A DNA stretch of 64,000 nt from Antedon mediterranea (GCF_964355755.1 NC_092677.1:18436101-18500100), one strand, 5' to 3'. Positions 3,802 to 49,960 are shown, counted from the first letter of the stretch. A program made the numbers and translations. The notes: generated from the sequence alone by a model not told the origin.

Positions 3802-4153
3802 CATTCCATCTTACTATTCTAACTAAACTTTATCACTATGGAATCCGAACCCTAATCCTTCTCACTCCTCGTGCTGCCTTCCTATGAATTGTGGCGTCCC
3901 ACAAGGATCTATACTCTCGTAAACGAGTGATTTAGAGTGAACTGATGTTCACTCTTAAATGAGTGGTAATCCACTCCAATGTGAGCGACTGCCATAATTA
4001 TTAAGCATAAAATATACCACTCCTTCAACGAGTGTGCATGTATTCCCGCTCGAACTGTAAACACTCGCCACTCGACTCCCGGGAGTGAAAACTTTTGATC
4101 GAGGCAGCCAATCAAATGCAAGCATTTCATAATTGTTATCGTCATCGCGCGCT

Positions 4154-4288
4154 TGTGTAATCACTTCTTGTTGCTATACGCTTATTGGGTGCACACGGAA
4201 CAAGAACATTTAACTGATGAATTATTCATGTTTATTTTGTGACGTTTCATGAGGGGGTCCCCAACTTATGTACGAAAACAAAAATCGC
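4154..4288. mobile_element. Solo right TIR of the MULE-type MITE family found at 32389 and 39467
   Basis: Matches 39929-40060 (TGTGTAATCACTTCTTGTTGCTATACGC...GGGGGTCCCCAACTTATGTACG..AAAATCGC); followed by GGACCGGAT. Confidence 0.85.
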
Positions 4289-22877: not shown

Positions 22878-25800
22878 ATGCAAACGTTGGTAGTTGTGTT
22901 TCTAGCCGTGTTTTTTTTTAACGGTGGTTGTGGTGAAGGTAAGTTAGTATCAAATAATATATTATTATCTTTAATTTGCTTTACAATGTATTACTATATA
23001 CATTATTGATTACATAAACCTACAAGTATAAAACAGCAACTCAAAGAACAAATATTCAACTGGGAGCCATTGGGTTTCTTTATATAAATTTACGTAAGGA
23101 AAAAATTCGATAAATCGCGCGTTATTTCTAGAATGTTTACTCGATGGTATATAAAGTTGGTTCGTGCTTTCGGTACTAATTTTAACCACCTGATGTAACA
23201 CTGTTTACTAATTAAATTGATAATTAGTTATTGACAAAACACGATTTACCCCAAATAGGGTTGTTTTCCGATCATGGTATACACTGTCTAATGGATGTCT
23301 ATCTTGAAAAATACCCGCACACAATAATACAAGGATGCTTCGCATTTTCCTGTCTTTCCTCCTACGATAAATGTTTTAATGGCTGAAAACCGATTGAACA
23401 GCTCGAGTACAGAATCATATTGTTGAGGATTTTCTTTAAAAAATACTATTTTGATAGAATTGATATACGTTTAAACCACATGTATTGATTTACGGTGAAT
23501 GAAACATTCCAAAGGTATTACTAGAGGGTTCGTTCGCTCGCCATCCTCAAGGAAGTGTAGACGTCGACGGTTCTCGGAATGATAATGACTCTGGTAAAAA
23601 TGTTTTAGAAGGAAATTTTTGCCTGGACATTTTCGGTCGGTTACCATTATTGAAATGCTTGATATTCGTAACTCACTAACCTGTTTCACAGTGTCTTATG
23701 ATTAATAGCGTTTTACGTATAGTGTTTATTGTTAGCACTAGGGATTCAGACCAAAAAAAATCAAAAAGATCTAACGTCTATTGATTTTTGGGCAAAAAAT
23801 TGCCTCAAACTGAATCCCAATAAATGCAAATCTATGCGACTTACTTAGAGAATATATCCCATTATATACAGCATTTCTGATATACGTTTAGATTGTAATG
23901 ATTTATTAAACATTTTAGGCTGTTCCATACAAAGTAACTTGTCATGGGACAATCAAGTTCAGGATGCAGTGTCAAATTGTAACCGTCTTATTGGTCTTAT
24001 ACGGTTAATCACATCTATGCCTCTAGTAGTGTAGTTCTCCATCTTTATAAGACACTTGTGCTGTCATGCTTTTATTATTGTTCTCTAGTGCGGTGGGTGT
24101 ACCGTAAAAAATATTTAAATATGTTAGAATCCGTTTAGAGGAAAGCTACCTGCATGATCTTAAAGAAAGGTTATTTACATCAACATTATATAGATAGAAG
24201 AAAGGAGCTAGGTCTAATGTCAGTAGAGAATAGACGTGATTTCTTAAACAAGACATTCATTGCCAATATAATAATTTCACCACGATCTGATTTTATGAGT
24301 GATTATATTGATTCTTTAACCGACACCTAGTTATACTTACCTTTCATTATGGTAGAGTCCGTACTGATGCTTAAATAATCAGGGATAGCAAAATGTTTTC
24401 AGAACTTGGTGCTCCGATTAGAAATAATCTTATTGAAGAGTCGTTTTTTAAGTTTAAACACAGTTTAAAGCAACATTTTATAGATTTTTTACTTTTCATA
24501 TTTTTATTTATTTTTTTAAATTGTACCTACTCTGAATTTTTAACTTTTTAACTTTTAGAAAATCAGAATTTTTAACTTTTATACAATCATAATTTGTAAC
24601 TTTTATACAATCAGAATGAAGATGACAGTTTTATTGCTTTTCCGCTACCCTGTTATACTTACATATTTTTTTTTATGTAGAAAGATTGAAAATAATTAAA
24701 AAACAAAAGAAAGAAGCGTGACAAAGAAGCGTGAGATTTAGATTAGGATTTCTCTTGCTCCAGTCGGCCATATGTAACAGAATGTGGCACACAATCGTGC
24801 GTGCTGGTGGTCTTATGACGACTATGACAAAAAATACATAACATAAGTTGCTGATTGTTGTTAACAACCTTTTTTTATCTTTACAGAGATCACATTTCCA
24901 GGAGGTTTCGGAGGAGGAAGAAGTAAGTAAAAGAAAGATATATGAAACTATAAATAAACATTCATTGTTCGTTTTAATGTTTCTCGATTTCATTGAGGCA
25001 TATTTAGTATTTAAAAAAATGAATTATGACATGCTTCATTGCTTTTATACACTAGATGGTACGCTCGCTTCGCTCGCGTACCATCTAGGTCGTGCCCACA
25101 GATGGTTCTCGAATACATAATAATTTCAGCGTTAAAAAACTGGCGATTTCAAATGTACGTAGGCCTACCGCAGGACAATAATACATGTCGTTTACAGGAA
25201 CGAATAAATAGACACTGTGATTTATGTACTCAACTAAAATTAGCACCCTGGGAATTACTTCCGAAAGAGAAACTTGTCACAAAATGAGACCAATTGTTTA
25301 AGTCAAATTTAAACAAACTTAATTTGTGTTTTGTATGTAACATTAGGGTTGAGGGATGGGGAAGAGGATGGGTGCAAAGAGGAACACTTTTTAAATATAT
25401 TCTTTATCCATTTAGTAACGAAATATTAATTGTTTTCATGTTTTACAAATAATATACCACTACACACAGTAAAACATTGCGATGTAATACTTTGTTGAAA
25501 CTATCACCGTCATAGTCGATTGAAATAGTACAGTACATGTAACGATACATCACTACGACGTGTATATGTTTATATAATGTAAAACAATTTGTGAAAACCA
25601 CCTCTATTCAGGGAAAATCATAAATTCGATTTAATCGTCAATAAATATTAAATTATCTAACTCAACTTAATTAGTAGGCCTAATGGTTTTCAATTGTTTC
25701 TTAGAGCCAATTCATACTTAAGTTGGTTCCTACCCTACCCACCAAAGTTGTTCTGCGTTTAGGGCAATGTACCGTAGGCTATCCTCTACTGGTTTTACAA

Positions 25801-28800
25801 CGCTACTCATGCCAGTGAGGGAAGGGTGATGATGTGGGTGGTTTAACTGCAATAATAAAGATGTGTACATAATATACGGCGAGTGAAAACGCTAGCTCAT
25901 TATCCGTTTAAACAAAATTTATATCCAAAATGGATCGAATTTCTGTTATGAGTATACAGTACTTGCCTTTACGACGCCTGAGGGAATAGACGGTTGTGGA
26001 ACAGAGATTGGAATGTTCCATTCATCGCAAATCAATACATTTGTATAAACGTATATTAAATCTATCAAAATAGTATTTTTTAAAGAAAATCGGCCTGTCT
26101 TCAACATTATGATGCTGTACTCGAGCTGTTCAACCGGTTTTCAGCCATTAAAAACAATTATCGTAGGAGGAGATAGGAAAATGCGAAGCATCCTCGTATT
26201 ATTGTTTGTGGGTATTTTTCAAGACGAACATCCATTAGACAGTGTATACCACGATCGAAAAACACCCATATTTGGGGCAAATCGTTGAACCTAAATTCGT
26301 TTTAATCGATCAATAACTAATTATCGAACTCAATTTAATTAGTAAACAGGGTTACATCAGGTGGTTAAAATCAGTACCGAAAGTACGAACCAACTTTATA
26401 TACCATCGAGTAAACATTCTAGAAATAACGGGCGATTTACCGAATTTTGCCCTTACGTAAATTTATATATAGATGTATAGTTAAAACATTGTAATGCTTG
26501 TTTCTTACAGGAATACAACCCACTGGAGGCCATGGTGGTGAGTTGAAAGTGTTTTATATACAATATGTTTTAGTTTTCACAAATACTATTATTTATTTAC
26601 TTGATAAACATAAAACTATGTTGAAATGGTTGTATTAAGCATATAATAATACTTATATTAATAATGATAAACCAATATAATACAAAATATTGTGCAAACT
26701 GAACAATATGTAAGTGTACCGACCAGAATTGTTCTACATAAAAATAGGACTTTCTATATAAAAACTGCCAAATTTCCTAAAACGACGAATTTTCTGTTTT
26801 TACGCTCTACCGTACGCATCTTTAAAAGAATAGATCATTTCGCAGTTTTAAATAATTTACTCACTTCCGTAATCAAGTTTTGTTTTATTTTTCTTCTTCT
26901 TTGTTTTTAGAAGTAGGTCATTGTTTAAACTGTAAATACATCACGTGTAAGCCAAAGCAGCCAAATCTTTCAACTCATGAAATAATTATCTTCTTTCAAA
27001 ACACTAAACTCTTCACTACCTGTTACAAAGTACATTTCTATTCAAATAATGATTCTATCTTCTTGAATCGTTGTCAAACTCTAAGCTAGGAAGGTAGTCC
27101 ATTAAAAAGGCAGCACTCCTATTTTGAAATCGAAATAGTACCATGGATATTTTGAATGCGAAAGAGTTAAAAAGCTGCACGGGCACTATGACTATGAATT
27201 AATGAGGTATAAATTAAAAAAATGTATACCTTCATGACTAATCTGAAATCATATGTATATCCCTAATATGTCTACATTGTTAAAATATTGTTCTCTGTAA
27301 AGTTGTCCTTGATTCTCAACCGCAAAACAATGAAGCCAAAATGTTTTATAAAATATCCAAGCACCACAATAATCTAAATCAAGATACATAGGCCTACAAT
27401 ACAAGATCAAAGGAATTATTAAAATTGGATAAACCCAAAACAGAATTTAAAACTAAAGTTTTTGATATCGTGGTAGATTATGGAATACTGTAGAAAACCC
27501 AATGCAAAGTGCCAAAAATACTTAAACAAAACTTTGCATGTAACTTTATTTTGTACCCCTAAATATAATGAAGGTTTCTGTTTATTTAGGCCTATGTTTT
27601 TCTCTCTCTTTTATTTTTAAATTAGTAATGTATTAAGTTGATCATGGCCTTGTTGTAGAACACTTTTCCGTGTTAAAATAAAATGATTTATTATTATTCT
27701 ATTATTATATGGAAAAGAGGTCATATATATTTAGAACGATTAATTAATCTTCCCCAACTATGACAAATGTGATGGCAAATGCCGTATAAACAATTATGCC
27801 CCATCGTTCACGTAAAGTTATCATGTATACTTTTTCAGCTCATGAAAGAAATCGTCGGGATAAATGTGAGTAGCTCCTGTACATATTGTAGTTAATAGGC
27901 CTACCTTTGATATATTACGTCTGTGCTGAAATAATATTTCAAATATATGTTTTTTGTTATTGATTATATAGGCCTATGTTCATTGAATTTGTATCGGTTA
28001 CTATTTGTATTTAACCTTCTGTTTTGAAATAAAATAAATATTTTCACTGAAAATGCAATAGGCCTACATACGGACACTTTAAAATAAAGTAAATGCTTTG
28101 GGTCGATAGCTATGGCAATGTTTTGGTCAATATAATAAAATTAACTAAAATACAAAGAGGACGTATCGTATCTTTATAATTTTACATACATATCGTAAAT
28201 GTACACCGATACACTACGTAATCAATTAGGTGGGGGCACATAGGCTACGTACAGCATACATTTTGCATACCTTGATTTACTGAATTTCAGATCGCTGTAA
28301 CTAAAACGTGTTACAAGGCTTAAACAAGATTAGGCCTATAACCTAACAAATTTGGGCTGTTCAAAATGTTAATTATTTGTTGTTCTACGCTTTGTAGCAC
28401 TAGTACCTCCTGCCGTAACTGGAATAAATGTTGAAAGTGGTGAGTCAACTATCCATAACTTACACTTATTTTAAACAGTAACAGGCTGATAGACAAGAAA
28501 CAATAATTATATTTTATTGCCTATGATAAAATAGGCAATAGCGTTATAGCCTACGTATTACATTTTAAAACAAGTTTAGCATAGTAACAGTACTATATTA
28601 CATTACATTATGTAAGTGCCATAAGTTATCATTTGTTTTTTTACTGTATTTCAGGTCATGACAGAATCCGCCGGGAAGAACGTGAGTAACTGTAAAAAGT
28701 TGATAAAACATTTATTTAAACAAGACTTATAATAAATCTAATATATTTTTATTATCTTAACATTTAACTTTCGATCACATCACTTTTTTTTTTTTATTAT

Positions 28801-31800
28801 TTATTTTATTTTATTTTATTAATAATTTTGTATAGTAATATCATAATCAACACATATTAACTTTCTTGCTAATTGTTTTGGTATAGATAATTAAATGCAT
28901 AAAACTCAATGAACTGAAATAGGCCTACGTATTGAGACCAACATCTACGTATCGTACTTTATACATTCAACATTATCGTAAAACTAAACGTTGATAACAT
29001 TGTTTAAACAAGATTATAACATAACAAATGTGTACAGTCTGTTCAAAATGTTAATTATTTGTTCTACGGTTTGTATTATTAGAACCTCCTGGCCCAAGTG
29101 GTAGAATAAACGTCGAAAGTGGTGAGTCAAATAACCATAACTTACACTTACACAATTCAAAAAGAAAGAGAAGAAACAATAATTATATTTCACTGCCTTT
29201 GATTTAGGAATAAAATATGCAAACGTATTACATTTTGAAACAAAGTTTAGCATCGTAAACAGTACTATTACATTATGTAAGTTCAATAATTTATTATTTA
29301 TTTAATGTATTTCAGGTCATGACAGAATCCGCCGGGAAGAACGTGAGTAACTGTAACACATAACACATAACTTAATCTATTTTTATTATCATAAAACTTA
29401 ACTTTCGATCACAACACTAAAATGTACCTTCATCGAAATGTTTATGTGCTAGCTGCTGTAGTTCTTCTTTGTGATTCAAAGTTTAATTGTATAATATTAT
29501 CATAACCAACACAGATAAACTTGATTTCGAATACATTTTCAAATAATTAATACATAGGCTAAAAATCGAAACGATTTAAAATAACAAGTAAAAATTGAAA
29601 AAATAAATAGTCAACCGAAATAAAGGAATACTGGATTAATATTTTCCTTCTACTATTTGTATTAAGTACAGCTCACTATGTCGGTCGGTTGGTCGGTCGG
29701 TCAAATAACTGAAACATGAGCACGCGACTGCAGCCATGTATATGTCCGTGTTATATTCATCATATCGTAAATATACACCCACACACTACTAAATCAATGA
29801 GGCGGTACAGTAACACACGTACAGCAACAATTGTTCATACCTTGATTTACTGAATGTCAGTACACCATCTCACCTAGTAAGCTGTATTGTAAAGGTCGTT
29901 GATCTAAATGTTAGTAAAGCGATCGCATATTCGGTGTAAGAACAGACAGAACAAAACATTTTGTGGTTGATAATATAAAATCAAATGCATTTACTCTTAA
30001 CACTTGTGTCCCACAGAGATGTGTTCTGTCCCCCTTTTTATTTACTTTATACTCATATGATTGTAAAGCAACTAGCGATTGTCACATTTTTAAATTCGCT
30101 GATGATGGGCTGATGATACAACCATAGTAGGTCTAATTACAAAAATGACGAAAATAACTATTTTAAACAGGCCGAGAGAATGATCTTGTGTTGAATGTAA
30201 ATAAAACAAAAAGAAATGCATATTTTTTTTCAGACGTCAGCAAAATTAAAAGTTCCCACTAATCCAAGGCAAAGAAGTTGAAATTGTTACAAGTTCTTAT
30301 GTATTCACTTTGCCGATGTTGACAAATGTTTCAAAAAAGGATCTCAACGTATTTTCTTTCTTAGAAGGATCAGGCAATTTGGTATTAGATCAGAGGTACA
30401 TTAATAATAATAATAACAGACTATCGATCAATAGTTGAAAGTATTCTTACTTTATCCTTTATGGCTGTTCCAATGAAGATAAAGAATAATAAAAGTTACA
30501 CAAGGTTGTTAGAAGTGCATAAAAAGTCATAGCCATACCCAAACGTTCTATTGGTACTTTGTACGCTGAACGTTTGCTCAAAAAGGCAAATTGATGATCA
30601 TAAATGATCCATACTATCCTGACATTTCCAAATTATGTCTCACAGTCACATATTTAGATCGATACTTGTAAAAACTAATTTCTGCAATCAGCAATCCGTT
30701 CAATTAATGATACATGTTTACGTTTAAGTGTTGTACTTCCCTGAAACCTTGAAATACCGGAATGGTGTCCGGCGGCGGGGTTTAGTTTTGACCAACCCCG
30801 AAACCTTGAAATACCGGAATGGTGTTCGGTGGGGTTTAGTTTTGACCAACCCCGAAACCTTGAAATACCGGAATGGTGTTCGGCGGGGTTTAGTTTTGAC
30901 CAACCCCGAAACCTTGAAATACCGGAATGGTGTCCGGCGGCGGGGTTTAGTTTTGACCAACCCCGAAACTTTGAAATACCGGAATGGTGTCCGACGACGG
31001 GGTTTAGTTTTGACCAACCCCGAAACCTTGGAATACCGGAATGGTGTCCGGCGGCGGGGTTTAGTTTTGACCAACCCCGAAACCTTGAAATACCGGAATG
31101 GTGTTCGGCGGCGGGGTTTAGTTTTGACCAACCCCGAAACCTTGAAATACCGGAATGGTGTCCGGCGGCGGGGTTTAGTTTTGACCAACCACGAAACCTT
31201 GAAATACCGTAATGGTGTTCGGCGGGGTTTAGTTTTGACCAACCCCGAAACCTTGAAATACCGGAATGGTGTTCGGTGGGGTTTAGTTTTGACCAACCCC
31301 GAAACCTTGAAATACCGGAATGGTGTTCGGCGGGGTTTAGTTTTGACCAACCCCGAAACCTTGAAATACCGGAATGGTGTCCGGCGGCGGGGTTTAGTTT
31401 TGACCAACCCCGAAACTTTGAAATACCGGAATGGTGTCCGACGACGGGGTTTAGTTTTGACCAACCCCGAAACCTTGGAATACCGGAATGGTGTCCGGCG
31501 GCGGGGTTTAGTTTTGACCAACCCCGAAACCTTGAAATACCGGAATGGTGTTCGGCGGCGGGGTTTAGTTTTGACCAACCCCGAAACCTTGAAATACCGG
31601 AATGGTGTCCGGCGGCGGGGTTTAGTTTTGACCAACCACGAAACCTTGAAATACCGTAATGGTGTTCGGCGGGGTTTAGTTTTGACCAACCCCGAAACCT
31701 TGAAATACCGGAATGGTGTCCGGTGGCGGGGTTTAGTTTTGACCAATCCCAAAACCTTGAGATACCGGAATGGTGTCCGGCGGCGGGGTTTAGTTTTGAC

Positions 31801-34800
31801 CAACCCTGAAACCTTGAAATACCGGAATGGTGTTCGGCGGGGTTTAGTTTTGACCAACCCCGAAACCTTGAAATACCGGAATGGTGTCCGGCGGCGGGGT
31901 TTAGTTTTGACCAACCAAGCAACCTTGAAATACCGGAATGGTGTCCGGCGGCGGGGTTTAGTTTTGACCAATCCCGAAACCTTGAAATACCGGAATGGTG
32001 TTCGGCGGGGTTTAGTTTTGACCAACCCCGAAACCTTGAAATACCGGAATGGTGTCCGGCGGCGGGGTTTAGTTTTGACCAACCCTGAAACCTTGAAATA
32101 CCGGAATGGTGTTCGGCGGGGTTTAGTTTTGACAACCCGGAAACCTTGAAATACCGGAATGGTGTCCGGCGGCGGGGTTTGGTTTTGACCAACCCCGAAA
32201 CCTTGAAATACCGGAATGGTGTCCGGCGGCGGAGTTTAGTTTTGACCAACCTTGAAATACCGGAAGGGTGTCCGGCGGCGGAGTTTAGTTTTGACCAACC
32301 CCGAAACCTTGAAATACCGGAATGGTGCCCGGCGGGGTTTAGTTTTGACCACGTAGTTGAAGTTCTATTTTTTTGCTGTAGCCGGGAAGCGATTTTTTTT
32401 TTTCGTACATAAGTTGGGGACCCCCTCATGAAACGTCACAAAATAAACATGAATAATTCATCAGTTAAATTTGTTGTTCCGTGTGCACCCAAGCGTATAG
32501 CAACAAGAAGCGATTACACAACTGCAATACGATACTTTCTACAACAGTAGGCCTAGGATTCTAAGTCAATTCACGCGATTGCCTTCGCGCACTCTTCTTC
32601 ACACAAAATGTGTCGAGTCGAGGCTAATCGACAGCTAGGCAAGACATTAAACTAAGTAGTAATTCATTGGACATAGCCCAAAGAAAGCTTAGACCCACAA
32701 GAATAAAGAATGTGTATAATTTGTGTACTGTATTTTTTTTAATTCTGCTATTTTATTATCAAACAATGCATGTACTCAAAGGAACTTTAAAAATGCGCGT
32801 ATATGAACACATGAGATGGGAAGATTAGACCCACTAGAATCGTACCGCACTTGTGTAATCATTTCTTGTTGCTATACGCTTGGGTGCAAACGGAACAAGA
32901 ACATTTAACTGATGAATTATTCATGTTTATTTTGTGACGTTTCATGAGGGGGTCCCCAACTTATGTACAAAAAAAAAAATCGCTACCGGGATGCGGGATA
33001 TCTTGACGCCATATCTACAATGTCCCTCTCATATTGGTCTAACTCCTCTCTACGTTGCGGATAAGCTCCGCACAATATATTTTTATAAATACCAAAGGCA
33101 TATATGAACTCCCCGATATTTAGCCTTTTGTTTAACCTTATATCTTTAGTGTGGGCATTTGCACCATCCTTGTTGTTGGATTCGATGGATAGACCAGAGT
33201 AATACGGAATCATTATTGATGCTAAAATAACATCCCTACCTGAAATGATCTGTTGCCGGATTGCCGGAGAGATTGTTTCCACTAAAGCCCCTTTCTCACA
33301 GATGTGCCTGCAATATACCGGTACAGTGCTGGCGTCGTGCCGGTATCGTTACCGGCATATAACCATTCTCATCGGACTATCGTGCCGGAAATATAACCGG
33401 TATATACCGGCTTTCTGTGAGAAAGCAGTCGGGCATATTCGGCCAATAAAAAGTCTCTGACAAAATAATTATTGAGGGCGTCCTTTAAACTGATTCCCAG
33501 TTTTGCTAAGACGTGTGCGTCTATTAATATGGACATTGACTCAATTTTCGAAACTTCCTACCTTGGCAATGACCCTGATAGTCATTGGGTTAAGAGATTT
33601 AAAGAGTTGATGCATGACACAAACATTGCATTTTGGAAAAGTGAAATGCTAAGAAAATCGTCACTTCAGACATACTCTCTTATTAAGTCTAATCCCTGCC
33701 TTGAAAAATATTTATTGGATTGTACAGACTTTCTAGGATCTAGCCTCAAATTCAAACTACGTTCTAACACCCTTCCTTTAGGTCACAGGAGTTGTAAGTG
33801 GCTTCCTGAATATGATGGTATCTGTAAAATGTGTAAGAATGGTTTAGAAGACATTCAACATTTTCTATTCACATGTAACCAACTCAATGGCATAAGGATT
33901 GAAGAATATACCAAATTAGAATATATGTTAATCGATATCAATCATTTAGATGTATGGGAAAATTGTATCTCTGGTGACCTGAACACCAAATTAAATCTTG
34001 TATTAGGTGGAACTGATAACTACTATCATTATATGTATGACGTCGATTCCATATCAAATATCTTTGATTGTTACTGTAAGCACTATGTTAAAAGAGCTTG
34101 GGCACACAGATGTATTGTTCTAGGCGAGTAATGTTCATATCAATCAAACTAAATGATTGATATCTATCTCACTAAATGATTGATATCTATCTCATTATAG
34201 TGTTAGGTCTACATTGTTGTTGCCCAATTCATTTTATATTGTACAGTTCCTACCTAGTATTCTATATGTTTATTTCTTGTAATTTTGTATTTTTAGGTGT
34301 CAGTTCAATGGTATTGTAGTTACTGTAGTTGAATTGTTTTGACATGTTGACCTATGTCGACTTTTTATTGTAATTGTTATTTTCTATATCATGTTTTTTT
34401 TTTTTTGTATATTTCTCTTGGATGCACCTTCCATTTGGTCGAGTGCCACTGTTGTAAAAGTGTAATCTCCAAATAAATTATTAATGTTATTATTTTTGTC
34501 TAGCGATGATATGGCGGCGAATGTCAAGTTACAGATTATTATCTTCCTTTATAGCATATTTATGCAATACATGCTATGTACAGTATATTGTGCATATATT
34601 ATACAGGCATAGCAATTAATTTGTCGTCATCGGCAATCTGTAAAACACCTTAGAAGGCTGTAGGCCTACAATTTACAAGGCGATGAAAGGTCAGGCACCA
34701 ACAAACAAAGAGCTAAATGGCCTAGCCTAGCGGCCTATAGATTATGCTACAAATTTCTTCTTGTCCCCTTATTTTAAGCAGCTCTCTTATCTCATTATCC

Positions 34801-37706
34801 CTCCAGTTCGACATTATTATTGTTAATTGAATTGAATAGGCGCCAAAGTGATACACTTGACCGCGCAATGTGTCAAAGCCTCGACGGGGAACCCCGGAAT
34901 TTAACGGCGATACGTTCTCACAGAATGCCCGTCTGGCATTGCGGGGAATATCCCTAGAATATTACTAGGTCTAAAGCAGGTCATGTCGATGCCGGCATGG
35001 TGCCGGCATGATGCCAAGACGACCCGTTCTCACAGAAAACCATACCGGCATGGTAATGGTATATTCCCGCAATATTCCTGGCACACAACTCTGTGAGAAA
35101 GGGGCTTAATAGACAAGTTCTATTTCCTCTGAAATATGGTGTAAGAAGCATTTTTGGGTAGAAGCTGGGATCCACTTGATTTAGGATATTTCGACCTCGC
35201 TGATTACGAATATGGCGGATCCCAAGCGAAATTCGGCCATCTAAGCCCTTAATTTGCATAATTAAAAATGGCGGCCATTTTTTATAATTACCCTATATCT
35301 CGAGAACCACTAGTCACAGATAATTAATTTTGGTCTCAAAATGTTTTAAATATATGTTTTTATATTCACTTTAATGACACATTTTCTCAAAAAATGGATG
35401 CAAGTCTTATTTCTGACATTTTGACCTTTGACCTTTATTTATCGTATCTCAGTAACCAATAATCGGAGAGACACGAAATAGGGCTCAAATTGTTCAGAAA
35501 CTATACATTCATATTTATTATAATGAAATGTTTTTACAAAAAATGGCCAATTCTACAACTATTGACCTTTGAACTATTAGTCAAATATAATAATATAATG
35601 ATAATATAACTTTGAAAATTGTGGTCTTATGAATTTTTTTTTCTTTTTAAATTGTTTAAAATATGTGTGTTTCTATCCAGTCTAATGGCACATTTTGTAC
35701 AAGAATGGCCGATAGTATGGTTATTGACCTTTAAACTACAGCATAGGCCTACTGTATACTAAATATAATATAATTGCATAACTATGAAATTATTTATACA
35801 CAATAATAATTAGTAAAATTATAAAATTCACTGCCATCAAATATGATGTGTTATGATTTATATAGATTAAAAAAAAAATTTGAACACGCAAGTTACATTT
35901 GTTGAAATTTGAAATTTGAAATCAAGACTAAAAAACATGAATTTTCCTTAATATGGTCAAATACAAAATTTGGCAAAATTCTTCCATAAAAACCAGGAAG
36001 GCTTTTTTTCAGTAGTTAGGTAGTAAACCTAATGTAATAACATTGAAAAAAGATGGTGGATATACAGTGGATAATTTTTTTGCTATAGCATGAAAATAAT
36101 TATTTTCAACAAGCTCGTGTAACACAAATTAAATGCCAAAAATTATGAAACATAGGGGAAACTATAGATCGATAATTATTGGAATGTATGATCAATAGAA
36201 ATTTTTTGCCCGCACCTGGCCTTTAAGGTGAAAATTCGAGCCAACAACAACAAGTTTACGTACTGTAATTAATAGGTAAATTAATTGTATTACATTTCGT
36301 CTGGAAAATCGTCGCTAGCGAAAGTAAACAATAAGATTTCAAACCACGAGTATGCATTATGCATGATGCTAATTAGGATTTAGAAGGACTATAGTGACCT
36401 CACACAAGGTTACCGTACTAATAAATTAAACGTAAAAGACTAGGCGACATATTAATAAAAACAGGTGTCCCTATCAAATAGATCAGATTCACTCGACACG
36501 GCCCTCCAAGCATATAACGCTCCTGCGAACAACAATATATACCTCAAGGATGTTAAAAAAAACAAATATGTAAGTTACTTACCGGTAATTCTACATTCAT
36601 TAACCATTATCAAATAATATTCCATATAAAATCATTTATGCTTTAATCATCTCTATTCTATTCTTCAGATACCAATCCATGTGACTCAGTTGATTGTAAA
36701 AATGGTGGAAATTGTTACATTAATTCTTATTACCAAGTTTATTGCGCGTGTCAAGATTGTTATTCTGGAACATACTGTGAAAAATGTAAGTTTGTTGAAT
36801 TTTGAATTCAAAATTATTTACTGCAATTACTTAAGTTATTTGAATTATAATTAACAATTTATACCCATTTTTGTTACAGATAATGATCCTTGTAATGATG
36901 ATAGTAATCCATGTCAAAACTCTGGTCTCTGTATTTCTGAGGGTTGTAATTTTTGGTGTAAATGTCCAGCATGCTATACTGGTGACAGTTGTGAATATTG
37001 TAAGAATCCTACCCACATACATACAACGTTCTTATATTAATTATAATTTTACAATTAAAATACATTTTTCTTATAAAATAATAATTAATCATTTCAGCAT
37101 TATTTTCAAATCATTTTGAAAGGTCTTACTTTCCATCCTCCTATCTGTTGTAATTGTAATTTTAATTGTGTTTGTATGAATTTATTTCACTAAATTTTAA
37201 TAAATTATTTTCTGCTTAGACATTAACCCTTGTGAAGATGTGAATTGTAATGGCGGGCAATGTGTAGTTATTTCAAACATCAGTCAGTGCACATATGAAT
37301 GTACCAACTGTCCATATGGCTATACTGGAAACAATTGTGAAACTCGTAAGTACAGTATTCAATTACTTGTTAAAGCATGCCATTTGGTTATAAATTCCCT
37401 ACAGGTGTTGGTGCCGTCGTGGAACTACTGGCAATAGATGTCAATGTAAGTATGAACACGGATTACAAAATGTATGTGTTTATGCGTTTGTTACCTAATT
37501 AACAATGCCTCTCGGAGTACAGTGATTTATTTGTTACTAACTAATTAACATGCCTCTCGGTCTACAGTGATTTATTTGTTACTAACAAGACTCCTATGTC
37601 ATAATTAACAATGCCTCTCGGAGTACAGTGATTTATTTGATAAGACTAACATTTTACAATTTTACTTGCAGATACTTCTGGTTACTACGCCCCATACGGA
37701 GGATAA
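22878..37706 (+). CDS. Secreted precursor: signal peptide, micro-exon peptide repeats with convertase sites, 3 EGF-like domains. Exons 22878-22938, 24887-24922, 26511-26537, 27839-27865, 28398-28439, 28655-28681, 29083-29121, 29316-29342, 36669-36785, 36880-36999, 37220-37345, 37672-37706
   Basis: Every exon has a pyrimidine-AG acceptor and all but the last a GTAAG/GTGAG donor; all introns are phase 1 and all internal exon lengths are multiples of 3. Joined frame: MQTLVVVFLAVFFFNGGCGEEITFPGGFGGGRRIQPTGGHGAHERNRRDKSLVPPAVTGINVESGHDRIRREEQPPGPSGRINVESGHDRIRREEHTNPCDSVDCKNGGNC...CETHTSGYYAPYGG*. The splice from 29342 to 36669 is inferred. Confidence 0.72.
23080..23512 (+). mobile_element. Helitron 5' fragment of the same family
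   Basis: TATATAAATTTACGTAAGG..AAATCGCGCGTTATTTCTAGAATGTTTACTCGATGG is the reverse complement of the end at 26400-26470. Confidence 0.75.
23760..24480 (+). mobile_element. Degenerate CR1-group LINE 3' fragment
   Basis: Remnants KLNPNKCKSM, SNLSWDNQV, VVLHLYKTLV, LESV*RKATCMI and RRKELGLMSVENRR. Confidence 0.65.
25052..26473 (-). mobile_element. Complete non-autonomous Helitron in intron 2 of the micro-exon gene
   Basis: 5'-TC...hairpin-CTAG-3' on the minus strand; the paralogous intron at 41467-41490 shows the empty site TTTTATACA|TGTATAGTTAAAAC with no TSD. Confidence 0.95.
27800..29860 (+). repeat. Tandem duplication of a two-micro-exon module with its introns, about 2.5 units of 650-800 bp
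   Basis: Exons 28655-28681 and 29316-29342 are identical and 27839-27865 is related; 28398-28439 resembles 29083-29121; flanking intron sequences are also similar. Confidence 0.85.
29930..30737 (+). mobile_element. Degenerate Rex1/Babar-like LINE body (RT 3' half); probable 3' tail displaced to 40070-40140
   Basis: Remnants CVPQRCVLSP, FKFADD, LNVNKTK and SQRIFFLRRIRQFG. A tail with AATAAA and CTTGA repeats follows the composite block. Confidence 0.7.
30738..32350. repeat. GC-rich minisatellite, 57/54-bp unit, about 29 copies, with a 447-bp higher-order duplication
   Basis: Unit CCCGAAACCTTGAAATACCGGAATGGTGT(C/T)CGG(CGG)CGGGGTTTAGTTTTGACCAAC. Identical ORF-track peptides at 30829 and 31276 mark the 447-bp repeat. 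Confidence 0.97.
32389..32983. mobile_element. MULE-type MITE, copy 1 (about 595 bp, about 135-bp TIRs)
   Basis: GCGATTTTTTTTTTTCGTACATAAGTTGGGGACCCCCTCATG...CATGAGGGGGTCCCCAACTTATGTAC(A)nTCGC; nearly identical to 39467-40060 and in the same orientation. Confidence 0.92.
32984..33282 (-). pseudogene. DIRS/Ngaro-type retrotransposon Gag-like fragment
   Basis: ETISPAIRQQIISGRDVILAS...DIRLNKRLNIGEFIYAFGIYKNILCGAYPQRREELDQYERDIVDMASRY resembles ORF1 of tyrosine-recombinase retrotransposons; bounded by other elements on both sides. Confidence 0.65.
33286..35106. mobile_element. PIF/Harbinger-like non-autonomous element with a nested LINE fragment
   Basis: TIR AGCCCCTTTCTCACAG...CTGTGAGAAAGGGGCT; TSD TAA at 33283-33285 and 35107-35109; subterminal CCGG-rich motifs. 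Confidence 0.85.
33472..34492 (+). mobile_element. 5'-truncated non-LTR retrotransposon 3' end (RTEX/CR1-group-like; ORF remnant 33472-34131)
   Basis: SSLQTYSLIK..LEKYL..KFKLRSNTLPL..CKMC..EDIQHFLFTC zinc-knuckle C-terminus; 3' UTR ending in AATAAA and an ATT-rich tail. Confidence 0.75.
36669..37345 (+). CDS. Three phase 1-1 EGF-like domain exons (36669-36785, 36880-36999, 37220-37345)
   Basis: NPCDSVDCKNGGNCYINSYYQVYCACQDCYSGTYCEK; DPCNDDSNPCQNSGLCISEGCNFWCKCPACYTGDSCEY; NPCEDVNCNGGQCVVISNISQCTYECTNCPYGYTGNNCET. Canonical AG/GTAAG boundaries, no stops. Confidence 0.92.
37497..37640. repeat. Short intronic tandem repeat, 3 copies
   Basis: AATTAACA(A)TGCCTCTCGG(AG/TC)TACAGTGATTTATTTG three times. 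Confidence 0.85.
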
Positions 37707-39466
37707 TATCTTAAAAGAAAATAATAATGAAATAAATATTATATAAATAAGCAGGAATTGTGTGAAAACAATGTTTAACACGATTCTATTTCTATCACAT
37801 CTCCAATGATCATTCAGTAAGATATTTCTAATATTTGTGAATTTATTTATATTATATAATATATTAGGTAATTTTAATACTATTTTATAAGAATTTATAT
37901 TAATAAATGAATAAATATGTAAAAGATAATTTATCTTCATTAAGATAATAATAATAATAATAGGGCCTAATAATAATACATTTTTAGAGCGCATACAGGG
38001 TTAAGCCTCTTTGCGATTAACAATAGAAAATAACAAGTTTCCAATAAAATAAAACTGGAACTAAATATTAAATAATATAATATAAGCATTAATATAACTT
38101 TTAGTTTGATAGAATTTGTAGCTAGGGACGTACTGTATTTTGAATTTAATGTTACAGTATAATTAATTTGTTACAATGAAATTCATGGGTTTTTGTAAAA
38201 CCAGAAAAGAATTATTATAATTTATTTATATAAACGGTGTTCAATTTGAACTAAAATATAAAATAATATGATATTTGATTTGTTTTGTATTTGTTTACAA
38301 ATAAAAATCTAAAAGTATGTCTAGTAGGACATTTGCTTTCTACATTTTAATAAACGTACTTTTATAATTAAAATTGTGATTACTTCGTTATTTTTGTTAC
38401 TCCATAATCAAATAACTTTAAATTAGATAATAGCAAATCTAACAATTATTTAAAGTTGTGAACGTCTAATTAATTATAGCATTTCTAATGTGTAATGTAT
38501 TTCATCGATCAGATTTTAAAGATGTATTGTCTCCCAAAAACATGACGGAAAAATGAAGATTAATAAAATCAGACATTGAATAGGCCATTGTATATTTTTA
38601 ATTAAGCTGTAGAAAAATGAAAAAAATAATGGTTTCACTTATAAGAAGCCAAATTAACTAATTGTCTGAGACAATTTGAGTATTTTTTGCTTTTCAGGTA
38701 AATAATTTTTTTTTCGATCCAATTTTTGGTTAAAGTTTAATATTTAAAGTTACATTAAAATGGCATATTCAACAAAAACATGTTATATATAGTCAACTGA
38801 TTCATATCTAATGCAAAGTAAACAATGGAATTCACGAAATCACCACTACAATACCACAAAGCTAAAGAAGTCCTTTTACTTCATTAAATCGTGTGTACAA
38901 AACAATTCATTCGAGTTACTACGATACCAACCAATTGTTGCTGTTCTTACCTCGTGTCTAATATCATTGGTCTTTATGATTCATATTAATCTTTATTGGT
39001 CTAATCATAACAAAAAATGTAATACGAAAATGTTTATAAACTGCAAATAAAATGTAAAAATATACATAAATATGGTTAATAACATCTCATTAAATTGGTG
39101 GTATATTATTGTAAAATGCTTCACTAAAAGTAACATAAACATAATCACTTTACGATTGTCATTTTTATGACATTCATGACAGACTACAATTTATATTGTC
39201 ACGTCATTTTTGCCATGACTATAGTCTTTATTGTCATCACCATTGAATCACCATGACTACGATCATTATCATTATTTGTTATCATAATCATGGTTACAGT
39301 CATTGTCATTTATGTTATGTTATCATCACTGTCAAAACGGTCCAACATGTCTAGCTCATCTGTCATCTTTTGTATGATTAGTCCTAGTAATCGTTATTAA
39401 TGCATATTTTAATATTAAAGTTGATCGTCTTATAGGCCTAATTCGCTTCTATACCCGGACCCGGAT

Positions 39467-40060
39467 GCGATTTTTTTTTTCGTACATGAGTTGGGGACCC
39501 CCTCATGAAACGTCACAAAATAAACATGAATAATTAATCAGTTAAATTTGTTGTTCCGTGTGCACCCAAGCGTATAGCAACAAGAAGCGATTACACAGCT
39601 GCGATACGATACTTTCTACAACAGTAGGCCTAGGATTCTAAGTCAATTCACGCGATTGCCTTCGCGCACTCTTCTTCACACAAAATGTGTCGAGTCGAGG
39701 CTAATCGACAGCTAGGCAAGACATTAAACTAAGTAGTAATTCATTGGACATAGCCCAAAGAAAGCTTAGACCCACAAGAATAAAGAATGTGTATAATTTG
39801 TGTACTGTATTTTTTTTAATTCTGCTATTTTATTATCAAACAATGCATGTACTCAAAGGAACTTTAAAAATGCGCGTATATGAACACATGAGATGGGAAG
39901 ATTAGACCCACTAGAATCGTACCGCACTTGTGTAATCACTTCTTGTTGCTATACGCTTGGGTGCACACGGAACAAGAACATTTAACTGATGAATTATTCA
40001 TGTTTATTTTGTGACGTTTCATGAGGGGGTCCCCAACTTATGTACGAAAAAAAAAATCGC
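39467..40060. mobile_element. MULE-type MITE, copy 2; right boundary of the putative composite transposon
   Basis: Near-identical to 32389-32983; right flank AGCCGGGAA (40061-40069) equals the left flank of copy 1 (32380-32388). Confidence 0.92.
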
Positions 40061-41302
40061 AGCCGGGAAACCGTTCAAATTCATTTCAATGTAAATTGGT
40101 CTATGTTTTACAAATAACAATAAATTTACTTGACTTGACTAGAGAGGCCAGAAATACAAGTCTTCTAAAAAATGTTTAGGAGATTTTTTTGTTAATAGCA
40201 GGCAACCATGTTGAATGTATACTTTGTGGGGTGACAAAAACGATAGGGGTGGATGCCATCTTCAGTTTTGGGATTTAGGTCAGTTATGTGGTTATGTGGA
40301 TTTTTTTTCACGCTGCTGCTTTAGCCAGCTATGTCCCAGGAGGATGACTCATTAAGAAACCGAAAGTAAAGCAGAAGTTTTGCTAAAGGTTGACAGTTTT
40401 GCTAAAATGTATACTCGACTGTAATTTATAGGTACCACCAAAAAACGTCTGGGAAAGAGTCTAACGGTTGAATGACAAATCCCAAAGCATTTGTGGTATT
40501 TATGAGTTCAATGATATTATAAAATTCGCTTTCAGATGATACTTCAGACTTGAATGAAGTATCTAGTCATGATGGAGTGACCCGCAGACTTGACCTTAGC
40601 AATAAAATAAACTAAAGTGACTGATATGAAACACAGACTCTGTAACAAAAAAATAATATTTGTTCACATATAAAAAAAGAAAAAAAAACCGTTTAATTAT
40701 AACTCAAAAACCACTGTCTGACAATTAAGTATTTTTGACATTAAATTACATTTTTTCAGGTAAAATAACTGTTATGTGACAATAAAATGACACATTCAAA
40801 CACAAATTTGAAATAAAAAATATTTTTCAGAGGGACAATATATCTTTAAAACTGTTACGTCAATAAGCGAGCAGCGTTTTTTGTAAGAAATATTTCTTGT
40901 TTATTTTATTTTATTCACAGAAAATCACATCTACAGATTTTCTGAAGATCAGCTATCATCAAATATTATATTAATTATGAGATAAACATTTTATTTTATA
41001 CATAAAAACATAGGAAATGAAATACAAAAGTGTCATTTTCTCAAAATGTTGTTTTCACATAATTTCGATAGAACATCTTTTAAGTGGCGTGAAAGACACA
41101 CTGGGCGTTTCATAGAAATCACCGGCGGCTCAACTTGTCGGCGGTCCGCATTATTTTTTTTCTATGCAATTAAGGCAGAAATCATTGAATAATTCATTAT
41201 AGAATAATTATGACATAATATGGGAAAAGTGTATGCCATTAAAATACTGATACTAAGTGTTTCAATTACAGTGAAAACGTCTTCCATTTTTTATCTTTAC
41301 AG

Positions 41303-41540
41303 AGATCACATTTCCAGGAGGAAGAGGAGGAGGAAGAGGAGGAGGAAGTAAGTGAAAGAAAGATTAAATATCAAACTATAAAAATCATTCATTGTTCATA
41401 TTTCTTGATTGCATTGAGGCATATTAGTATTTCAAAGAAGGATTGAATAATGACATGCTTCATTGCTTTTATACATGTATAGTTAAAACATTGTGATGCT
41501 TGTTTCTCTATAGGAATACAACCCGCTGAAGGCCGTGGTG
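41303..41540 (+). CDS. Paralogous micro-exon pair (41303-41347, xITFPGGRGGGRGGG; 41514-41540, RIQPAEGRG)
   Basis: Homologous to exons 24887-24922 and 26511-26537, with intron homology extending to about 41795; splice sites intact, phase 1, lengths 45 and 27 nt. Confidence 0.7.
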
Positions 41541-43422
41541 GTGAGTTGAAAGTGTTTTATATACAATATTTTTTAGTTTTCCCAAAATACTATTATTTAT
41601 TTACTTGATAAACATAAAACTATGTTGAAATGGTTGTATTAGGCATATAATATAGGCTTATATTATAAATGATAAACCAATTTTGTTGATTTATTTATTC
41701 TAATTCTTCAAATTATTAACCAAAATAGATATGATACAAAATATTGTGCAAACTGGACAATTTACAAGTGTCCCGACCAGAATTGTTCTACATAAAATAA
41801 AATGTTTAAACTAAAATTCACAACTAAATACCATCGATATACAAATTACATTTAACAACAAGTTAAAAGCTTAGCATCAAAGTTATGTTTTAGTGTTAAA
41901 GACAAAGGAGAATATAATTAATATCGAATACTTTTACATACAACATCATTCATCACAGTCGTTAACTTATTAAAGCTTCCACTCCCCACTTGGACAAAAC
42001 GCGTGGTCGCCACAAGTAAATTGACCAATCACGGCGCGGTGGATCAACTTATCTGTGTCGAGGAGCGAGGAAACAAGTCCCAATATTGCAATGAATAAAT
42101 ATGACGTAGGTTGGTCGTCGGTCAGAGGTTATATCTGTATTTGTGTGTCTACTATATCATAAAATTGATAAAAAAAGGATACAAATTGTCAACAATAAGC
42201 TACAAATAAATGTTCACAATTTTCTTAAACTGTACAGTGTGATTAATTATTATTATTAACTATTATATCATTATTGTATATACATTTTAATGTAATTAAT
42301 TATTAATGTTTCAATTGTATTTTTAGATGGTTACTAAGGAATTACATTGATCAGCCATAGATACATCTCTTTATCCTTATGTAAACAATTGGCGAATATA
42401 AACACTTGTGTGTTTTTGTGTAGCCTACATGTACAGGAACATATTCATCATTCGCGGTACTATACGTACCATTTATTTGTATCAACAACATATATATATA
42501 TAAAGTATTTCTTTCACAAGAATATTTCTATAAATACATATTGTTAAGAGATAAATATAAAGCAAGGAAAACGTGAAAAATAATTACGAAAAATTACAAT
42601 AGAAACATTTTTAAGGTAAATTCCAGTTTTAGATGTAGAGCAAAGTAGAAAATAAAAGAAAACTATGAAAAAAGATGGATATTGCGAGAACATACTACTG
42701 TCTGGCTATTTTAACCACTTCTCTATCAACACTTGTGTCTCTCTGTATTTGCTCTGTGCAGTTATGCGCATCCCTAGCTGTAACCTCATTAATGTTGGTC
42801 AGAGTACAATAGTAGTTCTTTAAATTCCTATTCAACATTTAAATTCTAAAAAAAACCAATGGTTTAGGCCTATATGTACTTTGTTTGCGACATATATAGC
42901 GCTTTTACAGTGGGTATAACTTTTTGAGCGTTCGTTCATTCTTGTGGATTCAACCAATGTATTTTAATATTTAGGTTTTGCCAAAGCCACTAGAAATAAT
43001 AACACATATTTATCATGCTTGCTGTTGTTTTTATTTATAAGGTTATTTTATTTTTGGAAATCTAAATGTTTATTTAGCCACAGTGTGCCTGTCTTTATTT
43101 TCATATACTCGCAATTCCATCATTTTCTTATACTGACCATGATTGCATAAAAGAACCTTGATATGGTTAGAAAGCTACACTCACACTTGTTCCGTTTCAC
43201 GGAATGGAAGACGTTCAATTATTTTTATGATTTTCCATTGCTTACCAAAACAGACTCGTGTTCCGTTCTCTATGGTGTGATAGCAATGTTGCCTTTTTTT
43301 ATAAGTCTTCGTTATAAAAGGTCCTGTGGCATAAATTATGACCTATTCAATGCACGGTTGTTCATTTCAACGGCTAGTACTCCGAAAATCAAAAGGGAAA
43401 CACGACGGGTAACCACACGACG

Positions 43423-48178: not shown

Positions 48179-48603
48179 AAATAATGTACATATAACCTTG
48201 AATATACAGTTCAAATTACACTTAACCATGGACATTTTAAAACTCTAATTTAATTGTTTAACGAAATAATATTGTCATTGGGTTAAAATGGCTGTGTTAA
48301 AAGCAATACATTCTGTGCGGCGTTTGAATGCGAGGCTCTGAAGCTAGAATTGGAAGGCTATAAGCTGAAATTTCTTGGTAAAATGGCTCAACATTATGTA
48401 ACAGGTAAGAAATAGCCTACTGTAATTGTATTTATTTGGTGAGGAGTCTCATCTGTAGGCCTACTTCTAGGCTAGGCCCACTTTAGTATTAGCCTGAGTG
48501 TGCCAACGCCAAGCATAATGCTAATCTTCTTAACTCATGTACAGTTACTACCAGTTAGGCCTACATTTGTACAATTCTGTTTATCAAGCAGTGGGTCAGA
48601 CTA

Positions 48604-49960
48604 GATTCAAGATTCAAGATTCAAGACATTTTATTTGTCCATAAAAATGGAAATTCACTTTGCTTGGTAGATTAAAACAACAATAAAAAAACAAACATAA
48701 CAAATGTTGCAACAATTTAAAACGTGCAGTATTATAACAGATAAAATACAAGATAAAAAGTTGAAAATAAAAAAACTGTTAAAAATGTAAAACTATTTAA
48801 AAATTGCATTATCGTCTTACATTAGAATTAAAAATATGAATGCTATTTACAACGAAGGATTTTCTAGTTCTACAAAGATTTGCTCTTGGAGGTCGTAGCC
48901 TCCCTGATCTATTTAAGTTATAACAGTAATGTAACGGATGAGTGGGGTCTTTCATAATATTGTTTACTTTTTTTTAAATACTCTTTTCATAGATAAATGA
49001 ACAAGGCGTTAGATCAGCTTTAATAATACGTTGTGCAATTTTACGTGGTCCTCAATATTTTTCTTATCATTATCAGTATAGTTACCATAAAAACATCCAA
49101 TGCTAAAAGATAAAATACTTTGAATAATACTTTGATAGAATTAAAATAGTGTTATCAACTCTAATTTGCTTGAGTTTTCTGAGAAAGAAAAGCCTTTGAG
49201 ATGCCTTCTTGGAAATCATGAGAGAGTTTGACTCCCATTTTAATTTGTTGTCAATTATAGTACCTAAGTATTTGTATTGGGTTACTCTTTCAACCTCGGT
49301 TTCTTTAATAGTTATTACATTATGTTCAACTGCGGTTTTACGAAAATCTATTATCATCTCTTTGGTTTTAGTAATATTAAGTATTAAGTTCATATCCTCA
49401 CACCAATTAACAAATCTTCCAACTTCATTAACAAATTAATTTACATTATGCTTACTATCGCAAAGAAAACCACTAATTACAGTATCGTCAGCGTATTTTT
49501 ACAATATTGCAATCTTTAAAACTACTTGAATAAAGAGAAAACAAAATTGGGGAAATAACACATCCCTGAGGATCCAACACTGATAGATTCTTTGTTGGAT
49601 AGGATACCATTGCACTTAACCATCTGCGGTCTATTAATCAAAAAACTATATATAACTTTGGCGAGCTGAGGTGATAAATTAAAACTTAATAATCTATCAA
49701 TTAAAACATGTGGTAAAATAGTATTAAAAGCACTAGAGAAATCGAAAAATATAGACCGTACGTATTTCTTTTTGAATCAAGTTGATGATATGTATCATGG
49801 AGATAAGAATTTACAGCATCGTCAACCTCTCTATTTTTCTTATGCAAATTGATTCGTATCTGCATTACCAATATTTTCCTTAAGTCTAGATACAATCAAC
49901 CTTTCTAAGCATTTCATTATATTTGAAGTAATTGCAGTTGGTCTAAAATCTTTTAGGCAA
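48604..49960 (-). mobile_element. Degenerate Rex1/Babar-like LINE, 5'-truncated
   Basis: DFRPTAITS, DFSSAFNTI, KYADDTVI, LNITKTKEMIIDFRK and SQRLFFLRKLK; 3' AATAAA plus (TCTTGAA)n tail at 48604-48640. Confidence 0.88.

Follow-up and report, generated by a model that had tools for sequence, protein, structure and literature searches.

A putative composite transposon of two Mutator-like MITEs carrying part of an EGF-repeat gene in Antedon mediterranea

Movement of class 1-1 extracellular modules such as EGF from one animal gene to another, unlinked one is mostly deduced from ancient events that have lost their junctions. How such a module travels can be asked at a locus of Antedon mediterranea in which three EGF-like exons lie in a 7.67-kb block bounded by two closely similar MITEs (miniature inverted-repeat transposable elements), 3 kb downstream of another gene. 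We analyzed a window of 64,000 nt around this block (GCF_964355755.1 NC_092677.1:18436101-18500100; coordinates are collected in Table 1). The reading that we prefer, with a probability of roughly 0.6, is that the block copies part of an EGF-repeat gene and moved as a composite transposon, using the outer ends of two Mutator-like MITEs.

The MITE pair and its insertion site

Alignment of the two MITEs revealed 98.66% identity, with 7 substitutions and 1 gap. Their terminal inverted repeats (TIRs) are about 148 bp long and 92-95% alike, rising to 99-100% over the outer 77 bp, and the termini read GCG...CGC. No open reading frame (ORF) of at least 70 aa lies wholly within copy 1. In sequencing run X1, from a conspecific sample described below, depth over the MITE was 94,000-178,000 against 42-48 over long unique pieces, a 2,000-4,000-fold excess that is not a copy number. 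TIRs longer than 100 bp on a short, non-coding, high-copy and homogeneous element agree with a Mutator-like MITE, and by its TIRs and a 9-bp target site duplication (TSD) the family would be Mutator-like. Among the 9-bp flanks of the pair, the outer two match and the inner two differ; the outer 9-mer, AGCCGGGAA, was found only at 32380 and 40061 when both strands of the window were scanned. An earlier description made from the sequence alone (hereafter the original prediction) had proposed two near-identical elements of about 595 bp in direct orientation, with unmatched TSDs of their own and an exact outer 9-bp repeat; we recovered 595 and 594 bp and all four flanks as it had given them.

Its caveat that the family prefers certain targets was also well founded: a CC-x-GG core was present in 5/5 family flanks of the window, that of a partial copy included, and the window contains 20 such target sites. 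A profile from the 4 distinct flanks of the window, a tiny sample, gave a chance of 0.2-2% for two identical flanks. MITE flanks recruited by likeness to a window flank are biased and were excluded from this profile. Judged by the outer pair, the TSD of the family would be 9 bp long; the footprints described below imply at least 7 bp. A search for the MITE end in metagenome contigs gave 0 matches.

The DNA on the two sides of the block was then compared. On the left stands the decayed end of a long interspersed nuclear element (LINE), whose Pfam matches (RVT_1, E 0.0015; ALKBH8_N, E 0.01) both fell short of the curated cut-off, followed by a satellite; the 37 bases between the satellite and copy 1 are without any 3' tail. 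On the right, an AATAAA signal (at 40119) with a TTGAC repeat tail stands 50 bp from the block. LINEs of this type end in AATAAA plus a short repeat, and an example within the window agrees: it contains two TTGA-type tails, and the other one terminates a related LINE at 48600-49900, with a C-terminal domain at E 7e-8. Under a looser definition of AATAAA plus a repeat there are 15 tails in the 64 kb, 5 of them on the plus strand, from which the chance of a plus-strand tail within 100 bp of the block is about 1%. The tail is likely the far half of the left-hand LINE, and the DNA flanking the block on left and right would then be one LINE 3' end, a contiguity read from its anatomy. Because a LINE ORF2 end lies to the left of the block and a LINE-type tail to its right, the outer 9-mer match is likely a true target duplication. 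The LINE tail, sought in metagenome contigs, gave 0 matches. The satellite shows higher-order repeats, lies 28 bases from the outer duplication and is open over more than 450 codons in several frames; these long ORFs were considered as a gene and dropped as a by-product of the 57-bp unit.

Origin of the cargo and its inner junctions

The original prediction of three intact EGF exons and a stop-containing exon with AATAAA signals downstream was borne out. All three EGF-like exons are open, of phase 1-1 and bounded by AG/GT, with Pfam EGF matches in two of the three, under the curated cut-off; the stop exon, which begins at 37672, is followed by AATAAA at 37731, 37902, 37910 and 38043. A query with EGF exon 3 returned one protein from one candidate, from A. 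mediterranea itself, whose cluster has two members: XP_071953093.1 (P0001; 253 aa, on a 31.7-Mb contig) and XP_071941017 (P0002; 362 aa, on a 40.9-Mb contig). The gene upstream of the block encodes XP_071959499.1 and lies on a third contig, of 28.6 Mb. Both P0001 and P0002 have extra EGF exons upstream of EGF1, and the one such exon tested shared 0/36 six-mers with the window. P0002 has three more EGF exons downstream, of which only the final 15 residues remain in the block, the missing parts giving 0/34, 0/34 and 0/21 six-mers in the window. The breakpoint of this internal deletion lies at about 37385-37399, and the match of a contig from a related organism (organism B, below) ends at 37385. 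The P0001 model likewise lacks the last EGF exons of P0002, and both models are without a signal peptide. Because the upstream parent exons are absent and the downstream EGF exons mostly lost, the block, judged from its exons, is a 5'-truncated and internally deleted gene copy that equals neither annotated parent, and by the same comparison its cargo is from another locus. P0001, too, is truncated at its 5' end, as a second such copy of the EGF gene, and may be another mobilized copy or the direct donor. The half-exon remnant of the parent's last EGF exon, the split LINE, the footprints and the upstream gene were all absent from the original prediction and are added here.

These data also bear on whether the EGF exons could be native to the 3' end of the upstream gene, with two independent MITE insertions whose flanks were lost and an outer match that arose by chance. 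The exons are all in frame with that gene, the target preference of the family is strong, and P0001 and P0002 are without a signal peptide, so that their models may not reach the true 5' end of the parent. This explanation is nonetheless the least probable of those considered, given that the LINE is split across the block, that the 3' flank of the EGF gene continues into other DNA in both organisms compared below, that the annotated upstream gene ends before the block, and that the parent exons upstream of EGF1 are absent here.

The right inner junction was compared in all contigs of four public runs: X1 and X2, from one sample of a conspecific organism A; X7, from the relative organism B; and X5, taken as RNA by guess only, which is without coverage of 39224-39437. 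A 6314-base contig of X7 tracks the flank to 39459 and then passes into other DNA, with one 9-bp CC-x-GG target and the MITE absent; organism B differs from the window by 15 substitutions in the first 318 bases. In X1, a 7914-base contig carries the 6-bp duplication of the window followed by organism B's continuation, again with the MITE absent, and X2 agrees. In addition, a 52-base contig of X2 joins the right inner flank to a MITE start, and differs from copy 2 in the length of a T run and in one base. The right inner site thus occurs in three states across the runs: empty, scarred, and scarred with a MITE.

At the left inner junction, the 9-bp target is followed by seven bases (32993-32999) that read as the first 3 bases of the MITE plus the last 4 of the target. 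The retroelement ORF at this break has a motif there in 22/24 homologues, with Gly in 17/22 where the window has Ala, and Pro-Gly stands at the break in 9 homologues, the crinoid one included. Matches of X1 and X5 contigs end at 32994, and the X5 contig continues for 986 unlike bases without the MITE. The two inner flanks, each with its own native continuation in these comparisons, are two different donor sites, which excludes a circle that brought in a single MITE together with its TSD. Both inner scars would be footprints left when earlier insertions at these targets were excised, and the MITE family likely reuses its own targets. To account for both inner ends standing beside scars, we would guess at re-insertion into the element's own duplication, because the target is rare.

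Routes by which the block may have arrived

Because the LINE 3' end is split, the parent genes lie on other contigs and versions of both inner junctions without the MITE occur in public runs, the sequence data support the view that the block arrived as a single unit bounded by MITEs, as the original prediction had it, and on firmer ground than it had claimed. Of the two routes that it offered, transposition by the outer TIRs stands, and integration of a circle into a resident MITE stands only if the circle was released from between two MITEs of the donor. As in a composite transposon, two complete elements of the same family bracket the cargo, the TSD is at the outer ends only, and the cargo comes from elsewhere. 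Two simpler rearrangements were ruled out: a tandem duplication would leave both copies sharing both flanks, and an inversion between the copies disagrees with their direct orientation and with inner flanks that are not reverse complements of the outer ones.

The composite transposition that we favor takes the fewest steps. It would start from a very abundant MITE family, with the CC-x-GG core in all flanks seen. Two copies in direct orientation would have inserted 6.5 kb apart in a donor allele, one in an intron and the other 1.8 kb past the stop, each at a previously used target. A transposase acting in trans would then have brought together the left end of copy 1 and the right end of copy 2, and the resulting 7.67-kb unit would have inserted into the 3' untranslated region of the LINE, with duplication of 9 bp. 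The cargo shares both strand and intron phase with the micro-exon gene upstream, to which it may be spliced.

Exactly the same structure would result if a single MITE with its own 9-bp duplication had been resident in the LINE and the block had entered by homology, either as a circle freed from between two MITEs at the donor locus or by break repair copying donor MITE, block and donor MITE, with no transposase acting on the whole unit. The copies are 98.7% alike and the family is, in X1, 2,000-4,000 times deeper than unique pieces, so substrates are abundant; Alu-mediated duplication in primates is a parallel. In an aphid gene copy, recombination and alternative transposition were inseparable (PMC7202869), and gap filling predominates among single-copy Pack-TIRs of animals (PMC8277862). 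Entry by homology nevertheless calls for that two-MITE donor as well, together with a third copy already in residence; the circle route requires two rare exchanges, and two copies give no readable mosaic pattern. We consider it possible and worth keeping in view, though on balance unlikely. The structure cannot separate composite transposition from recombination; a pre-insertion allele can.

Two further explanations concern the joints themselves. In a two-step alternative transposition, sister copies of one resident MITE would attack two donor targets, one by its right end and one by its left end, and be resolved into an insertion. No donor MITE is needed, both inner ends would join exactly at a preferred 9-bp target, and alternative transposition yields composite insertions in maize (PMC9910405). 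One reaction takes one target, however, and two targets would mean two interchromosomal events with unbalanced intermediates; the footprints, moreover, are explained no better than by the other models, which makes this route very improbable. An assembly artefact, in which the assembler left a single resident MITE into the donor copy, walked the block and returned, would give matching outer flanks; no contig spans the block, and the exact copy-2 junction of the window, with its longer T run and one private base, was not among the junction pieces from the runs. Against such a walk, the block matches neither parent (it is without the last EGF exons of P0002 and 2 residues off P0001), letters of the window such as 38891, 39011 and 39211 are not in the compared run contigs, and a repeat of 595 bp is short for long-read assembly. 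We hold an artefact to be highly unlikely.

Several points weigh against composite transposition of the block. Neither an empty target allele nor a donor with both MITEs in place was seen. The junction contig of X2 may be the same insertion on another haplotype and not the donor. Nor was any one member of the family seen between matching 9-mers of its own, so that the TSD length is taken from the outer 9-mers and the scars. The LINE matches are under the Pfam cut-offs, and no other LINE copy was seen to span both halves. Among annotated proteins, none links the signal peptide of the upstream gene with the EGF exons (1 protein from 1 candidate for EGF exon 3, and 1 from 4 for the upstream gene). 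Finally, most single-copy captures by TIR elements in animals are reported as transposition-independent gap filling (PMC8277862).

The kind of event proposed is known from other organisms, and the variant is unusual. Maize Ac/Ds macrotransposons and composite insertions are reportedly treated by Huang and Dooner (2008) and Wang et al. (2022). For maize Ac macrotransposons, paired movement of this kind is documented: two elements that lie close together carry along the intervening DNA (10-28 kb) by their outer ends, and the TSD lies only outside (PMC9910405). Those elements are of the hAT type with an 8-bp TSD and were described from selected laboratory alleles with mostly nearby moves (PMC9910405), whereas here we find a pair of long-TIR MITEs, both non-autonomous, a duplication of 9 bp, a wild animal and cargo from another chromosome-sized contig. 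The foldback-framed composite transposable element of Ising in Drosophila, for which paired-end movement with outer TSDs is documented too, moves host genes as a unit between two long-TIR elements, but it spans hundreds of kb with whole genes and was described cytologically (PMC6431247); the present block has 7.67 kb, a gene fragment and junctions read at base level. Pack-MULEs, animal Pack-TIRs and Ssk-FB4 copy exons to other chromosomes by TIR elements, often as chimeras with neighbors, and Pack-TIRs hold their cargo (median 224 bp) inside one element, with microhomology at internal breakpoints (PMC8277862). In contrast, 6.5 kb of cargo is here joined at the exact ends of two whole elements with four TIRs, and the block works like a member of that class without being one. 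The 14-kb CYP6CY3 copy of aphids is also a gene copy in the region of another gene with DNA transposons at a breakpoint and inseparable mechanisms; the nested transposons stand at one breakpoint only, with no pair of like elements and outer TSD (PMC7202869). As for the MITE family, Mutator-like elements such as Muta1 of Aedes share TIRs of more than 100 bp, TSDs of 8-11 bp and many non-autonomous derivatives, and differ from it in that Muta1 has little or no target preference and mostly precise excision (PMC5225508, PMC6446971), against a narrow CC-x-GG core and footprint-like scars here. A literature search found no two-MITE unit carrying exons in an animal, a weak negative, since most subscription journals and supplements lay outside it.

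At this locus the young junctions are readable at base level, the parent genes and the empty right inner site of a relative are known, and the recipient is phase-compatible, so that both the vehicle and a first splicing outcome are testable with existing data types. Searches for cargo inside one element would overlook two-element units like this block. Even without a chimera, it would be a clean natural case of MITE-bounded interchromosomal duplication in an animal.

The upstream gene and other features of the window

The micro-exons of the upstream gene (27-45 nt) are all of phase 1-1 and lie on the same strand as the block. Splicing this gene into the block would give an open frame of 227 aa with three EGF modules. 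The class 1-1 rule for shuffled modules has been set out elsewhere (PMC8001218), and we found the symmetric phase-1 exons, the shared strand and the phase-1 intron that it involves; the term intron holds for the cargo only if exon 29316-29342 or a donor at 29121 is used. A chimeric protein is possible on these grounds. Because the annotated transcript ends before the block, with a stop at 29207 and AATAAA two bases on, it is more likely that the block copy would be silent or minor. One X5 contig begins matching at the first base of the terminal exon, with 188 other letters in front, which is how a spliced message from some copy would look; it was not counted either way for expression. A wider reading has the MITE pair bring three phase-1 EGF exons plus a terminal exon over from another chromosome to a place behind the signal-peptide micro-exon gene, with splicing and expression of a secreted 227-aa EGF protein. 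In it, the right-hand MITE may also have produced P0001 together with other left partners, and a target-specific Mutator-like family that returns to its own sites would be a serial exon shuffler in crinoids. As a whole this reading seems to us doubtful. If the cargo were expressed as a chimera, this would be exon shuffling caught in the act.

The upstream gene, seen as a whole, occupies 22854-29342, with the exon duplicates at 41303-41540, and some of its exons are internally duplicated. Its protein is small, predicted to be secreted and rich in Gly, Pro and Arg, with Arg-x-Arg-Arg sites; it forms a one-protein cluster and had no Pfam family match. Behind its duplicated exons 2' and 3' an unannotated candidate short terminal exon (42327-42340) would close the gene at 122 aa without the block.

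Table 1. Coordinates of the block, its surroundings and related features in the 64,000-nt window.
Feature	Position	Strand	Remarks
Partial third copy of the MITE family	4148-4288	+	Lone right TIR; interior differs
Upstream (host) gene, as annotated	22878-29207	+	Spliced translation equals XP_071959499.1 (P0027), 114/114 aa
Host signal-peptide exon, coding	22878-22938	+	
Host micro-exons	24887-24922, 26511-26537, 27839-27865, 28398-28439, 28655-28681	+	
Host last annotated exon	29083-29207	+	Read through to stop
Unannotated 27-nt micro-exon	29316-29342	+	Same sequence as 28655-28681; splice sites intact; phase 1-1; nearest host exon upstream of the block
Decayed 3' part of LINE ORF2 (reverse transcriptase and C-terminal domain)	29918-30710	+	RVT_1 and ALKBH8_N matches; translation
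57-bp satellite, 29 units	30739-32351		Directly after the LINE ORF2 end
Left outer 9-bp flank (probable TSD, left copy)	32380-32388	+	Same 9-mer as 40061-40069
MITE copy 1	32389-32983	+	595 bp; long TIRs; non-autonomous
Left inner junction	32984-32999	+	9-bp target plus 7 extra bases; footprint-like
Retroelement ORF fragment	32984-33285	-	Cut by MITE copy 1; 24 homologues among 57 candidates
TIR element with TAA duplication	33286-35106		Right end and TAA read in the sequence
Nested LINE piece in the preceding element	33485-34480		zf-RVT match
Further high-copy repeat debris	35110-36530		X1 depth 20,000-226,000 against 42-48 in long unique pieces
EGF-like exon 1	36669-36785	+	Phase 1-1; 38/38 aa to P0001 and P0002
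EGF-like exon 2	36880-36999	+	Phase 1-1; 39/39 aa to P0002, 37/39 to P0001
EGF-like exon 3	37220-37345	+	Phase 1-1; 41/41 aa to P0001 and P0002
Remnant (3' part) of the last parental EGF exon	37400-37445	+	15/15 aa to P0002
Terminal exon, coding part and stop	37672-37706	+	10/10 aa to P0001 and P0002
3' flank of the parent gene	38775-39466	+	Common to the MITE-free allele of organism A (X1) and organism B (X7)
Right inner junction	39452-39466	+	6-bp duplication of the ancestral 9-bp target, footprint-like; last 9 bases are the left flank of MITE copy 2
MITE copy 2	39467-40060	+	594 bp; direct orientation relative to copy 1
Right outer 9-bp flank (probable TSD, right copy)	40061-40069	+	Same 9-mer as 32380-32388
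LINE-type 3' end	40070-40139	+	AATAAA at 40119; short TTGAC repeat tail
Duplicates of host exons 2 and 3	41303-41347, 41514-41540	+	About 80% identical including introns; behind the block

Between MITE copy 1 and the EGF exons the block consists of other repeats. Homologues of the retroelement ORF include one with a phage-integrase (tyrosine-recombinase) domain and one with a LEM domain, and we take the fragment to be, as is likely, part of a tyrosine-recombinase retroelement of the DIRS/Ngaro type. The TIR element next to it is presumably PIF/Harbinger-like, and the joint 33484-34481, in which the nested LINE piece is absent, was present in X1 and X7.

A PHD-finger ORF (Pfam E 2e-5; a lead only) stands 4 kb to the left of the lone right TIR of the MITE family, and positions 1-2476, which end 1.7 kb to the left of that TIR, contain it together with further exon-like pieces that, we assume, resemble the N-terminus of a Mutator-like (MULE) transposase. 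Together with the lone TIR, these pieces could represent one end of a larger member of the family. For 2327-2476 a FLYWCH domain was considered and dropped when Pfam gave no match. Elsewhere in the window, a long minus-strand LINE at 6450-9520 has endonuclease and reverse transcriptase regions that look largely intact by eye, and the first exon of a cytochrome b5 gene lies at 51177-51290 (Pfam E 5e-11).

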